DNA of 64,000 nt from an uncultured Cellvibrionales bacterium (GCA_913050115.1 CAJWZU010000001.1:17527-81526), one strand, 5' to 3'. Positions 8,405 through 14,303 are shown, numbered from the stretch's first letter. The notes: generated by a model not told the origin, from the letters alone. Numbers and translations: made by a program.

Positions 8405-9637
8405 TCACGGCTGCAACCTCGCATTGCCGCTAAATGTACCCATGGTTTGTTCCGCCAGAGCCTGCTTAGCCGGGGGCACACATTCCAGACCAATAAAGCC
8501 AAGCGCTCGCAGCGCAGCAAAAGGCAGACTACTATTGGTGAAAATTTGGCTAATAGCATGACTGAAGCCAATGGTTGCCTTTTGATCAAAGTTCTGGCGC
8601 TGTTGATAGCGCTGCAGCATAGGCAACTGCCCCAACGGTTGGTTTTGGGCCATCAATAACTCATCCACCAAAATCGCGCAGTCACGCAGCGCCAAGTTAA
8701 AACCCTGTCCCGCCACAGGGTGTAAAAAGTGCGCAGCATTGCCCATCAGCGCCAAGTGTGTACGCACTTGCTCACGGGCAATAATAAGCTGCAGCGGGTA
8801 ACTGTGGCGCTGCCCGACCTTCACCAAACGCCCTAATCGATGGCCAAAAAGCTGCTGTAGCTGCGCTAAAAAATCGGCGTCGGCAAGGCGAATAACTTGC
8901 GCCGCCTGCTCGGTAGGCAGGGTCCACACCAGCGCCGCATGTCTGGCATTATGCGATTCACCCAGCGGCAACAGTGCCATAGGTCCGCTGTTAGTAAAGC
9001 GTTCATAGGCCACACCTTGATGAGCTTGGCTCAGCTCAACATTGGCGATAATAGCCTGCTGTTGATAATCGACTCGATCCGCCTCAATACCGACAGCGTG
9101 GCGCAACCTAGACTCGGCGCCATCGCAGATCAAACACAGCGAGGTGGTCAGCAAGAGCGCCTCATCACCGCGTTTTACGCTGAGTTGATAACCGTCTTTT
9201 TGGGGCTGTAAGCTTTCCACTTGCGCGGGCGCAATCACGGTAAGATTAAAATAGCAGGGTAATTGCTGCAACAACACCGAGCCCAGCCAAGCGTTTTCGA
9301 TAACCGCACCAACTGGCTTATCCGCTTCTATTAGGGCGCCGCCAAGATGGCCCTTATCAGAAATGTGCACACGACTAATGTCAGTGGTGTGCTCTTGCAG
9401 TGTCTGCCACAGCCCGAGCTGTTGAAATATGTCGATACTACCGCGCGACAGCGCCGTAGAGCGGGCATCAAAATTAGGCTGATAGTGCGCATCGTCATCT
9501 GATGATAATACTTGCGATTCAATGAGAGCAATCGACCACTGTTTATTGGCCTGCGCCAATAAAATAGCGAGACTGGCTCCCACCATACCTCCACCGACAA
9601 TAATAATATCGAAATATTGCTTCAACTCAACCGTCAC
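8405..9637 (-). CDS. ubiH: 2-octaprenyl-6-methoxyphenol hydroxylase
   Basis: 410 aa with a GTG start preceded by GGAG. Motifs IIIVGGGMVGAS and GNAAHFLHPVAGQGFNLALRD. Located directly downstream of pepP. Confidence 0.85.
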   Translation of the reverse strand: MTVELKQYFDIIIVGGGMVGASLAILLAQANKQWSIALIESQVLSSDDDAHYQPNFDARSTALSRGSIDIFQQLGLWQTLQEHTTDISRVHISDKGHLGGALIEADKPVGAVIENAWLGSVLLQQLPCYFNLTVIAPAQVESLQPQKDGYQLSVKRGDEALLLTTSLCLICDGAESRLRHAVGIEADRVDYQQQAIIANVELSQAHQGVAYERFTNSGPMALLPLGESHNARHAALVWTLPTEQAAQVIRLADADFLAQLQQLFGHRLGRLVKVGQRHSYPLQLIIAREQVRTHLALMGNAAHFLHPVAGQGFNLALRDCAILVDELLMAQNQPLGQLPMLQRYQQRQNFDQKATIGFSHAISQIFTNSSLPFAALRALGFIGLECVPPAKQALAEQTMGTFSGNARLQP

Positions 9638-9890
9638 AGCTCTCGCTCCAAAGGTGACACTGCACCCGCTTGTATCGCCACATCGACGCTAACGCTATCG
9701 AAACATTGCCTCAACTTAATCGTCACGATTCACGCTCCAAAAGGTGACACTGCACCCGCTTGTATCGCCACACCGACGCTAACGCTATCGAAATATTGCT
9801 TCAACTTAATCGTCACAGCTCACGCTTCAAAAGGTGGCATTGCACACGCTTTTATAACCGCCACCGACGCTAATAGTATCGATATGTGAA
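9608..9890. repeat. About 3 tandem copies of an 89-91 bp unit containing the ubiH start region
   Basis: The unit atcgaaatattgcttcaact[c/t]aa[c/t]cgtcac plus a roughly 60-nt spacer begins at 9608, 9697 and 9787, with a stub at 9878. Copy 1 holds the real ubiH GTG. Confidence 0.9.
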
Positions 9891-11886: not shown

Positions 11887-12155
11887 ACAAAAAAAGGCTC
11901 TTGGGCTCTAATACAAATGAATATATCGATAAAAATGTATGCTATCACGAAACCCTTGACCCTTTTATCGACTATATACAAGTAAGTGGTGTTATCTCGG
12001 CAGCCAAAAACGCCAAGAAAATCACAGTTAAAACGTTAAAAACCCTTAATTCTTAATACATAGACGCCATAATCTAGAATCTACTTCAACAATCATTGAC
12101 CCCCTGCCAAGCGGGTCATATAGTTAACAATTATATACATAACGGCTAATTTCAA

Positions 12156-12365
12156 ATGTCTAACGATTTGCTGCAAACGCTGGAAACTAAAGTCGACCTG
12201 TTAATTCAGCTTTGCGGGCGCTTGGCCGATGAAAACAGCGAGCTAAAACAGCATAAGTCAGAGTCGCTAGTAGAGCGTGCTCGCCTAACTGAAAAAAATG
12301 AGCTGGCGCGAAATCGCGTCGAAGCCATGATTAGTCGCCTCAAAAAATTGGAGAATAACGAGTGA
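12156..12365 (+). CDS. Small coiled-coil protein (ZapB-like / TIGR02449-type) upstream of zapA
   Basis: 69 aa with a heptad-rich sequence. Its stop overlaps the zapA GTG (GAGTGA). A similar small gene sits at this position in pseudomonads. Confidence 0.65.
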   Translation: MSNDLLQTLETKVDLLIQLCGRLADENSELKQHKSESLVERARLTEKNELARNRVEAMISRLKKLENNE

Positions 12366-12649
12366 GCACTGAAAAGATCTTTGTCAAAATTCTCGATAAA
12401 GAATACCAAGTTGCCTGCCCCACAGAAGAAAAATCCGCACTGGTTCAGTCCGCAGAAGAACTAGACAGTCGCATGCGCGCCATCAAAAACTCCGGTGCCA
12501 TCATCGGTATCGAGCGCATCGCCGTAATGGCCGCTCTTAACCTCAGCCACGATTTGCTGAAGAGCGAAGGCACCATTAACCCTGTAGCCGAGGAAGACCT
12601 GCAGCGCATGCACGATAAGCTTGATGATGCACTAGGGCGTTTAAACTAA
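12362..12649 (+). CDS. zapA: Cell division protein ZapA
   Basis: 95 aa with a ZapA-like N-terminus (KILDKEYQVACPTEEK). Sits in zapA-ssrS-ygfA synteny. Confidence 0.85.
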   Translation: MSTEKIFVKILDKEYQVACPTEEKSALVQSAEELDSRMRAIKNSGAIIGIERIAVMAALNLSHDLLKSEGTINPVAEEDLQRMHDKLDDALGRLN

Positions 12650-12730
12650 ACCGCCGATATGCCACTTTTTTTACCCTACTTTTTGAAAGTTAATATTCTG
12701 CTTCCAATTTTACTGAGCTATAATCACTGA

Positions 12731-12905
12731 ACCTAGGATGTTGGCGAGTCGATTCAGTCCCTGAGCCGATAAGTATACCCCCGGAGGTTTTCAGTAATCA
12801 TGGTGTGCAAGCCTGCATGACAGGAAGCCTTTTTGATTGCCGGAACCACCACTTGAACCCCATGGTTCAAGGCACCATTGACAGCGGCATTCCCGGGCCT
12901 AATTT
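12731..12905 (+). ncRNA. ssrS: 6S RNA
   Basis: By eye it aligns to E. coli 6S: cagtccctgagccgat matches CAGUCCCCUGAGCCGAU, and cttgaaccccatggttcaagg...cagcggcat matches CCUUGAACCAAGGGUUCAAGG...GCGGCAU. A TATAAT sits at 12719-12724. It lies between zapA and ygfA as in E. coli. The ends are good to about 10 nt. Confidence 0.9.
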
Positions 12906-13400
12906 TCGACACCTTTAAAGAGCCAGATATTGTCGCGAGATTTTTAATGGCCTCGCGCACAAGCCCGCATCAAAAGAAGCTTCTCTCGTCGCCAAAAAGG
13001 ATTACCGGAGCCATCATTTGAACCCCATAGTTCAAGGCGCCATTGACAGCGACATTCCCGAGCTTAATTTTTGACACATTAACGAGCCAGATATTGTCGC
13101 TAGCTTTTTAGTGGCCTCGCGCACAAGCCCGCATCAAAAGAAGCTCCTCTCGTCGCCAAAAAGGATTACCGGAGCCATCATTTGAACCCCATAGTTCAAG
13201 GCGCCATTGACAGCGACATTCCCGAGCCTAATTTTCGACACCTTTAAAGAGCCAGATATTGTCGCTAGATTTTTAATGGCTCGCCCACAAACCAGCAGAA
13301 CAATACGCTGCCTCGTCGTTAAAAAAAATTAACGGAACCATCACCTGAACCCGATAGTTCCATTGACAGCGACACTCTTGGGGCCTAATTTAAAACCTGC
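12840..13400. repeat. Tandem array of about 3.4 copies of a roughly 164-bp unit, whose first copy is the 3' half of 6S RNA
   Basis: Units begin at 12840, 13005 and 13169, with a degenerate one at 13332. Copies 2 and 3 are identical over their first 59 nt. Each keeps the ttgaac/gttcaa hairpin and the cattcccg(g/a)gcctaatttt tail. Confidence 0.92.
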
Positions 13401-13420
13401 CACCGTTCAAGACCGAGCTA

Positions 13421-14080
13421 ATGATCCACAAGCCCCCTTCGCAGCCAATAAATCGCCACACCATTCGCCAACAGATGCGCAAAATCCGCCGCACACTGTC
13501 GCCTCGCCAACAATATCAGGCCGGACTTGACCTAAAAAAGAACTTGGCCACACAACCGCTTTTTATCCGCAGCGAGCGCATTGCTTTTTATCTCGCCAAC
13601 GACGGTGAAATAAACCCATCTCCACTTCTCGATTTAGCTCTCAGCCTTGGCAAAAAATGCTACCTACCCGTGCTTGCTCCTGGTGTTAATAAGGCTATAT
13701 GGTTTATTCGTTACGACCATAACACCCCGATGCAACGTAATCGCTACGGCATTGCAGAGCCAAAGATCAACCTTAGCCAACGCCTCAAAGCACCGCAACT
13801 GGATTTAGTATTAATGCCACTAGTGGCATTTGATGAAGAGGGTGGACGGCTGGGTATGGGCGGAGGCTATTACGATCGCTGCTTTGCTTTCAAACAGCGC
13901 AGCCAACAGCATAATCCGTATCTACTAGGACTGGCACACAATAGCCAACAGAGTTATGAGTTACCGATTGAAAGCTGGGATATACCAATGGCGTGTATTG
14001 CCACAGATAAACAACTGGTGATTTGCTCCAAGGCAAGCTGCCACAGAGATTTTCGAATACCAGTAAAAAAGAGAAGATAA
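13421..14080 (+). CDS. ygfA: 5-formyltetrahydrofolate cyclo-ligase
   Basis: 219 aa with the GMGGGYYDR motif. Occupies the conserved position downstream of ssrS. Confidence 0.88.
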   Translation: MIHKPPSQPINRHTIRQQMRKIRRTLSPRQQYQAGLDLKKNLATQPLFIRSERIAFYLANDGEINPSPLLDLALSLGKKCYLPVLAPGVNKAIWFIRYDHNTPMQRNRYGIAEPKINLSQRLKAPQLDLVLMPLVAFDEEGGRLGMGGGYYDRCFAFKQRSQQHNPYLLGLAHNSQQSYELPIESWDIPMACIATDKQLVICSKASCHRDFRIPVKKRR

Positions 14081-14165
14081 AGCGCTTCCTGCGCCACGGC
14101 GAGACTTAATTAATTAGCCTAGCGTCGGCTAAAATTCGCATTACGTCCTTTTCATTATTACTTAT

Positions 14166-14303
14166 CTAGCGATATGCAACCCCCTGCTGAAGAGCAGATG
14201 GCGCGGGTGCCTCGCTGTGAAATAATCCACTAGCGTTAACACTGCTGACCAAAACTCCAAAACAGAAGACCAGAATCGCGACAGTTACTATGTCGGTTTT
14301 CAT
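14166..14303 (-). CDS. Possible small secreted peptide (45 aa)
   Basis: Below the ORF-track cutoff. An AAGGA lies 8 nt before the ATG. Sequence MKTDIVTVAILVFCFGVLVSSVNA|SGLFHSEAPAPSALQQGVAYR shows a signal-peptide-like N-terminus. It is the only plausible ORF in a 770-bp convergent gap. Confidence 0.3.
   Translation of the reverse strand: MKTDIVTVAILVFCFGVLVSSVNASGLFHSEAPAPSALQQGVAYR

Follow-up and report, generated by a model that had tools for sequence, protein, structure and literature searches.

The interval between ssrS, which encodes 6S RNA, and ygfA in an uncultured marine member of the Cellvibrionales is occupied by a tandem array that we consider likely to be a minisatellite of truncated ssrS pseudo-copies, maintained by unequal recombination and probably without a function of its own. 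The window, that is, the whole stretch of DNA analysed, comprises 64,000 nt. In it, TRF reported one array at ssrS, at 12835-13360, with a period of 164, 3.2 copies, 87% matches and a score of 793. Since the TRF start lies at 12835 and the Rfam 6S match ends at 12903, the array begins 69 nt inside the 3' end of 6S; at its other end it extends to about 30 nt before ygfA. A reading made earlier from the sequence alone had placed a repeat between these two genes, with copies that start (at ccgga) at 12840, 13005 and 13169 and a degenerate one at 13332. The TRF array and the single Rfam 6S match bear this out, and the start positions proved correct.

A complete 6S gene precedes the array

According to the ORF calls, the order of genes is zapB-like, zapA, ssrS and ygfA, followed by an ilvA-like gene on the opposite strand. 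zapA, for which a Pfam ZapA match was obtained on an identical protein from other contigs, served as anchor in the search for contigs across the array. The features of the locus are as follows.

12362-12649, + strand: zapA, 95 aa, ORF, upstream neighbour of ssrS
12719-12724, + strand: TATAAT, resembling a -10 hexamer, 2-3 nt before the start of the Rfam 6S match, read from the sequence
12727-12903, + strand: ssrS, complete 6S RNA, Rfam RF00013, 84.6 bits, model positions 1-187 of 187
13393-13420, + strand: tail from the last arm to the ygfA start, 28 nt
13421-14080, + strand: ygfA, 5-formyltetrahydrofolate cyclo-ligase, 219 aa, ORF, Pfam PF01812 on an identical protein

The first copy belongs to RF00013 (gathering score 46.4) both by its full-length match to the model and by its conserved zapA-ssrS-ygfA context, and the MFE fold of 12727-12903 contains the closing stem and the 3' hairpin. 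The TATAAT hexamer is kept in L177 and L182, two of the sister loci described below, and was absent from the output of a promoter consensus scan; we presume it to be an element of the ssrS promoter.

Gene callers dispute the start of ygfA, placing it either at ATG 13421 (219 aa) or at ATG 13475 (201 aa), 54 nt downstream; the shorter call would put the start codon further from the array tail by the same distance. Shortly before the ygfA start, CCTGCCACCGTTCAAGA (13396-13412) shows no difference among the window, L177, L179 and L182, unlike the four-fold sites of ygfA, which are 74-90% identical between the window and L082 or L001. A pairing of this part of the tail with the 5' closing strand of 6S appeared in the MFE fold of 694 nt and was rejected as being at chance level: 103 of 1000 shuffled tails equalled the -14.1 kcal/mol of the duplex, and better values were obtained for many windows downstream.

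The array is built of mosaic units found nowhere else in the window

The array divides into three complete units and one partial unit.

12835-12998, + strand: unit 1, complete; arm 1 (12835-12906) is the working 6S 3' arm, and spacer 1 is 12907-12998
12999-13162, + strand: unit 2, a complete hybrid with segment A as in unit 3, segment C as in unit 1 and segment B of the L001 type
13163-13326, + strand: unit 3, complete, with A as in unit 2, B as in unit 1 and C diverged
13327-13392, + strand: unit 4, partial, a degenerate arm identical to arm 1 at 53/73 positions, with a 7-nt deletion and a hairpin of about 4 bp

The copies differ mutually at 10-14% of positions, and these differences are distributed by segment. 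In segment A (unit positions 1-72), units 2 and 3 agree at 71/72 positions, either of them agreeing with unit 1 at 63-64/72. In segment B (73-115) it is units 1 and 3 that agree (42/43), unit 2 differing from both, and in segment C (116-164) units 1 and 2 (47/50), unit 3 differing from both. The sequence-only reading had described copies 2 and 3 as identical over their first 59 nt, which corresponds to 65 identical nt in the TRF phase and to about 60 counted from ccgga, and had noted a mosaic, which the segments bear out, with a middle segment common to copies 1 and 3 and absent from copy 2. It had also credited every copy with the ttgaac/gttcaa hairpin; this fails for copy 4, in which about 4 bp are left beside the 7-nt deletion. 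A degenerate last arm adjoins ygfA at the same position in L177, L182 and L179.

Core 20-25-mers of the unit were found nowhere else in the 64-kb window, with 0 expected by chance. A dispersed repeat of the REP or MITE kind would have copies at other loci, and within the window there are none. The copies instead lie head to tail, well beyond chance, with motifs unique to the locus within the window, as in a minisatellite or VNTR.

Each unit joins a 6S 3' arm to a 6S-related spacer

Positions 1-72 of every unit match 6S nt 108-180 and include the 3' side of the internal helix, the ttgaac/gttcaa hairpin and, from both the central bubble and the closing stem, the 3' strand. The other 92 nt proved to be related to 6S as well, as their 3' part is similar, by local alignment of spacers 1 and 2, to a stretch further upstream in the gene.

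12784-12828, + strand: 6S nt 58-102, to which the 3' part of every spacer is homologous; actual left limit of the unit

This similarity has z scores of 6.1 and 4.7 for spacers 1 and 2, respectively (0 and 2 of 500 dinucleotide shuffles), and the spacer of L182 retains CATGACAGGAAGCC exactly (z 6.9). Given the spacer homology, the duplicated segment would begin near nt 58 of 6S, include the 3' end of the gene and stop some 30 nt downstream of it. The earlier description of the repeat as the 3' half of 6S thus stands as regards the 3' arm, and falls short in that the unit is larger and its spacers also match nt 58-102. The accompanying statement that no copy has the 5' arm was right: nothing recognisable as a counterpart of 6S nt 1-57, with its 5' closing strand and pRNA-template strand, is present in any copy.

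Other origins for the spacer were tried and rejected. Derivation from the ygfA start region, suggested by CACAAGCCC and TAATG, which are shared by eye, was not upheld by local alignment, the spacer giving z scores of -1.2 to 1.8 with the tail plus the first 100 nt of ygfA; the roughly 30 nt at its beginning were not significantly similar to the tail or to the ygfA start either. A unit starting from 6S nt 23, read from TCGA...GAGCC.GATA at equal spacing, was likewise rejected, only nt 58 onward being supported: when the initial 33 nt of the spacer were aligned globally with 6S nt 23-57, the z score was about 0 in four lineages.

An RF00013 search of 12600-13500 at E<=10 returned no second or truncated match beyond 12727-12903, which is consistent with extra units that lack nt 1-57. 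These units fall below the gathering threshold and have only one strand of the closing stem and central bubble. The one full match was as anticipated in the sequence-only reading; the truncated matches that it had also expected were not found, even at this permissive E value. Each sister array likewise had a single 6S match; that of L185 is cut short where the contig ends, and those of L182, L177 and L166 are full-length.

Copy number and unit arrangement differ among near-identical strains

We compared the window with contigs from other assemblies and samples. L165, an independent Tara contig, is identical to it over all 831 nt compared. L166, judged like all copy counts here from short-read assemblies, is the window minus exactly unit 2 and is otherwise 100% identical. 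A collapse of the assembly is unlikely in this case, since the C1-A-B3 junction, at about 89 nt, is shorter than k (119, the value implied by the contig name) and since its junction k-mers would be absent from a four-arm genome. Recombinant arrangements were found in L170, where arm 1 is joined directly to a B2/C2-type spacer, and in L161, where a variant arm 2 has a C2-type tail before it. Both of these, as well as L163 and L169, come from other samples and overlap parts of the array.

Five contigs with an identical YgfA (219- or 201-aa call), namely L161-L164 and L176, end inside the array, and the MAG scaffold L167 has an N gap in it; L183 also belongs with these contigs and MAG scaffolds that stop in the 6S array or have N gaps. 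Published MAGs of the focal clade likely misreport the 6S-array locus.

Counting the working arm, there are 3 and 4 arms in the species of the window and 2 in the L177 lineage. Close relatives differ in copy number, as in a VNTR (L166, L182 compared with L185, and L177), and the A/B/C pattern and the arrangements in L170 and L161 are those of concerted evolution with hybrid units. Units within one lineage are more alike than units of different lineages. Neutral slippage, which the sequence-only reading had kept as an option, is supported by copy numbers and mosaics that differ between near-identical strains, and its suggestion of homogenisation by sister lineages with independently homogenised arrays or a decayed remnant. 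That reading had further held that random copy-number variation among relatives with no change in 6S would speak against a functional array. What we found comes close to this, in that copy number varies and the 6S of the window and L001 is 98% identical (176/180).

Sister lineages carry arrays or remnants of different size

The closest genome, L001, has 89% of YgfA residues in common with the window, and the next closest, L002, 60%. In other Cellvibrionales, 6S ends 30-100 nt before ygfA without a repeat. The lineages are listed below with YgfA identity in brackets.

L182 (84%): 2.3 copies with a period of 159, at 98%, together with a short spacer and a last arm that is degenerate
L185 (84%, protein shared with L182): one arm less than in L182
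L179-L181 (87%): similar arrays on broken contigs
L177/L001 (89%): only one extra arm, strongly decayed
L186 (68%): one degenerate arm
L188 (66%): no extra arm
L002 (60%): no extra arm

Since extra arms are spread over sister lineages, the first duplication is old. Each lineage has since continued, separately, to gain, lose and homogenise units. In L177/L001, the hairpin of the extra arm is down to 6 bp with a bulge, and CCGG in the closing strand has become TTGC. By eye, the spacers of the window and L182 are about 75% identical, the four-fold sites of ygfA being 74% identical. The L001 remnant is about 60-65% identical (by eye) to any arm of the window, and four-fold sites across five genes are 76-93% identical; the low value for the remnant may come partly from comparing non-orthologous units rather than from faster change.

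The extra arm of L186 (1-130) has the ttgaac/gttcaa hairpin swapped for a different one of 7 bp (GAGCCAC...GTGACTC). Within that hairpin one position is changed on both sides, A-U having become G-C. This is one instance only, and covariation tested over the pooled arms was negative.

Sequence and structure tests of the extra arms

No sign of function was found in the extra arms by the sequence and structure tests. Compared with arm 1, arms 2 and 3 have 8 changes in common, all of them transitions, of which 4 preserve a pair of the Rfam structure, 2 break one and 2 fall at unpaired positions. This leaves 2 of about 47 pairs with the 5' arm broken in arms 2 and 3, and preservation at 4/6 paired sites is indistinguishable from chance. 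Arm 2 has an extra change, C to T at 6S nt 173, by which a non-canonical A-C becomes A-U. When the 5' half was fused to arm 2, 3 or 4, the chimeric 6S folded at -43.6, -42.9 and -45.8 kcal/mol, respectively, compared with -50.9 kcal/mol for the real 6S, that is, with 5-8 kcal/mol less stability and with the canonical fold lost. The duplex of the arm 4 closing strand with the 5' strand has -16.8 kcal/mol, compared with -13.8 kcal/mol for that of arm 1.

RNAalifold analysis of 9 extra arms from five lineages yielded a consensus structure of 0 pairs. The inherited hairpin was paired in only 63% of cells and its covariation was no better than in shuffles; the RNA of two units was likewise no more stable than shuffles (z -1.19). 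The earlier suggestion that spare arms could pair with the 5' arm gained no support from the folding, in which arms 2-4 are the less stable partners, or from the covariation test, and no test supported the 6S isoforms, processing decoys or modulation of ygfA that had been proposed along with it.

Other candidate signals in the units were also rejected. A conserved stem of CCGG at the arm start with CCCGGG in the closing strand, seemingly compensated by TTGCA/TTGCA in L177, showed no pairs in RNAalifold over the 9 arms. Promoter-like TCGACA-16-TATTGT occurs at 12906-12933 and 13235-13262, these 2 sites comparing with 2.4 expected in shuffled sequence. The terminator-like site at 13364-13331 on the - strand has no - strand gene to terminate, and the count of such sites is at chance level. 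Small ORFs in the units were dismissed as genes, with frames that are not conserved and no Pfam match above threshold: for the + strand ORFs MASRTSPHQKK... and MARPQTSR..., the ATG is lost in L177 and the frame differs in L182 (by eye), and the - strand ORFs, of 35 aa in the window and 38/59 aa in L182, encode unrelated peptides.

A second array in the window and an independent array in L149

The phenomenon recurs once within the window and once at another ssrS locus.

9607-9873, read on the - strand: second array, period 90, 3.0 copies, 86% matches (TRF)
229-449 of L149, with 6S at 78-255: array that starts in the 6S 3' closing strand and runs toward ygfA

Apart from the array at ssrS, the first of these is the window's sole long-period array. 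It is situated between pepP and the following gene on the - strand (8405-9637), presumed to be ubiH from its FAD-binding Pfam matches and N-terminal DIIIVGGGMVGA motif. Its unit includes the GTG start and first 31 nt of the presumed ubiH (29/31 identical by eye) together with some 45 nt upstream. In L001 an 89-bp unit is present in 5.3 copies at the corresponding place (2212-2676), so that the second array also varies in copy number. As at ssrS, a gene edge and the spacer beside it are repeated in such a way that one copy of the gene stays intact, with drift in copy number afterwards; such duplication in this genome is thus independent of 6S biology.

L149 comes from a metagenomic gammaproteobacterium that is unrelated (YgfA 46% identical); its tandem repeat has an 89-bp unit in 2.5 copies at 92% identity, and its nearest 6S relatives (L019, L016, L100 and L101) are without a repeat. 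We examined 116 ygfA loci at which a 6S had been located, and in only 2 clades, the focal clade and L149, was the 6S 3' arm significantly repeated downstream. Since the spacer between 6S and ygfA is usually 30-100 nt, a tolerated duplication of at least 90 bp there must overlap either the 6S 3' end or the ygfA start. The recurrence in L149 is suggestive, being compatible with function without requiring it.

Origin and turnover of the array

The explanation that we favour, a recombining minisatellite of ssrS pseudo-copies, would start from an ancestral tandem duplication with its left end near nt 58 of 6S, taking in the 3' end of the gene and some 30 nt of spacer. Because one endpoint would have lain in the gene and the other in the spacer, the first copy is a complete 6S and ygfA is intact, and the duplication would thus have been tolerated. 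Units would since have been added, lost and homogenised by unequal homologous recombination, slippage and gene conversion; such exchange between units would account for the mosaic units and for the differences in copy number among strains. Unit 2, with segment A of unit 3 and segment C of unit 1, looks like a crossover product. The extra copies, which lack the ssrS promoter region, the 5' closing-stem strand, the pRNA-template strand and a conserved structure, are decaying. As the leader of ssrS-ygfA read-through, the array would be passively transcribed and then trimmed off in 6S 3' maturation, and its only effect is probably a longer untranslated C-rich stretch before ygfA.

Some of the data sit less easily with neutrality. 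The extra arm is 88-99% identical to the working 6S arm and the rest of the 6S-derived part is far more diverged, an unevenness that counts against simple neutral decay and calls either for crossovers or conversion involving arm 1 or for selection on the arms. Likeliest is that the arms are re-seeded by crossovers from arm 1, which is under selection, and that the spacers are not re-seeded; selection on the arms themselves is the alternative reason for their similarity. Also to be set against a neutral reading are the retention of one or more extra arms in lineages as distant as 68% YgfA identity, the independent origin of the L149 array, the 4/6 paired-site substitutions in arms 2 and 3 that keep pairing with the 5' arm, and the C-rich, G-poor composition of the array and first third of ygfA, which would suit Rho loading.

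Alternative explanations

Functional readings in which the array gives rise to 6S isoforms or decoys, or serves as a Rho-loading leader, are unlikely even when combined. Quite unlikely, too, is the view that the reiterated 6S 3' arms are a selected, recurrent device of ssrS-ygfA loci, with copy number as a fast-evolving tuning knob through which the arms or the C-rich leader would set the share of precursor that goes to mature 6S as opposed to read-through into, or translation of, ygfA. Three observations favour this view, namely the independent origin in L149, the persistence of the arm to 68% YgfA identity and the greater similarity of the arms than of the rest of the unit.

We consider it very doubtful that, as the sequence-only reading mainly proposed, spare 3' arms have a cis effect on the ssrS-ygfA precursor, pairing with the single 5' arm and so tuning 6S maturation, whether through longer 6S isoforms or as decoys in folding or processing. 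In favour of this, the arms retain most of the complementarity to the 5' arm, with 2 of about 47 pairs broken and 4/6 changes pair-preserving, and the closing-strand duplex is even stronger for arm 4 than for arm 1. The arms are also closer than the spacers to the working 6S arm, the L149 array arose independently, and a + strand scan of 12100-14300 found no intrinsic terminator-like site (G+C-rich hairpin plus T run) between 6S and ygfA. However, the preserved pairs are at chance level, chimeras with arm 2, 3 or 4 are 5-8 kcal/mol weaker with the canonical fold gone, and covariation and a consensus structure are absent among the extra arms. The L177 lineage, moreover, has a decayed arm only, and copy number varies among near-identical strains. 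Arm 1, being transcribed first and lying closest, should in any case win the pairing co-transcriptionally.

Highly improbable, in our view, is that the array insulates ygfA from the very strong ssrS promoter, its repeated C-rich leader providing Rho loading sites, with the corollary that more units would give less read-through into ygfA. The composition would allow this, with 28% C and 19% G in the array and a GC skew of -0.14 to -0.33 over the array and the first third of ygfA, as would the lack of an intrinsic terminator-like site in the + strand scan. In E. coli, Rho-dependent termination downstream of ssrS reportedly affects both 6S 3' processing and ygfA expression. The C-over-G skew is not specific to the array, however, since it continues into ygfA and has its source in the C-rich 3' arm of 6S; in most relatives 6S and ygfA are only 30-100 nt apart; and copy number is polymorphic rather than fixed.

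There is next to no chance that the extra units are additional expressed 6S-like paralogues. Tandem full-length 6S genes are described in the Bacillus cereus group (PMC7726162), and the units here do hold the promoter-like hexamers TCGACA-16-TATTGT, but this explanation is already contradicted by the model, homology, folding and promoter tests: no extra unit matches the 6S model at E<=10, a counterpart of 6S nt 1-57 is missing, the units fold no better than shuffles, and the promoter-like sites are no more numerous than expected. An assembly artefact is scarcely credible either: short-read contigs often break in the array and L167 has its N gap, but the copies differ at 10-14% of positions where an artefact should give identical ones, the same 831-nt structure is present in L165, from another assembly, further contigs from other samples (JGI, NCBI, ENA and Logan) contain overlapping pieces, and sister species have related arrays.

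Comparison with known systems

The locus advises caution in annotation, as look-alike fragments that are not genes can trail a regulatory RNA gene, and the array breaks short-read assemblies and MAG scaffolds here. It also offers a clean example of partial-gene tandem duplications that survive at gene edges and then evolve in concert. Should the arms affect 6S maturation or ygfA read-through, natural strains would constitute an allelic series for the coupling of 6S 3' processing to ygfA.

The first copy is a standard 6S RNA (SsrS, RF00013) in the gammaproteobacterial ssrS-ygfA arrangement. The extra copies differ from this family in lacking nt 1-57, in giving no model match and in being unable to form a closing stem or central bubble alone. 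Tandem full-length 6S RNA-encoding genes, as described for the Bacillus cereus group (PMC7726162), resemble the present array in having 6S-derived sequence in tandem at one locus. The difference is that here one complete gene is followed by truncated copies in decay, without the ssrS promoter region, with promoter-like sites at chance level. The searchable literature yielded no earlier description of a truncated tandem 6S array. Within the same genome, the array at 9607-9873 is comparable in that a gene edge and the adjacent spacer are repeated, and differs in that the edge is the 5' end of a protein-coding gene and not an RNA gene.

The closest likeness is to bacterial minisatellites or VNTRs and partial-gene duplications, with which the array shares head-to-tail units of about 160 bp, copy-number differences among strains, hybrid units, homogenisation per lineage and a location where an intact copy of the gene survives. 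Unlike in minisatellites, the unit is drawn from a regulatory RNA gene and not from anonymous spacer or coding sequence, and its first arm doubles as the working 3' arm of the gene. Taken together, the locus fits a known class, that of polymorphic intergenic tandem repeats and partial-gene duplications.
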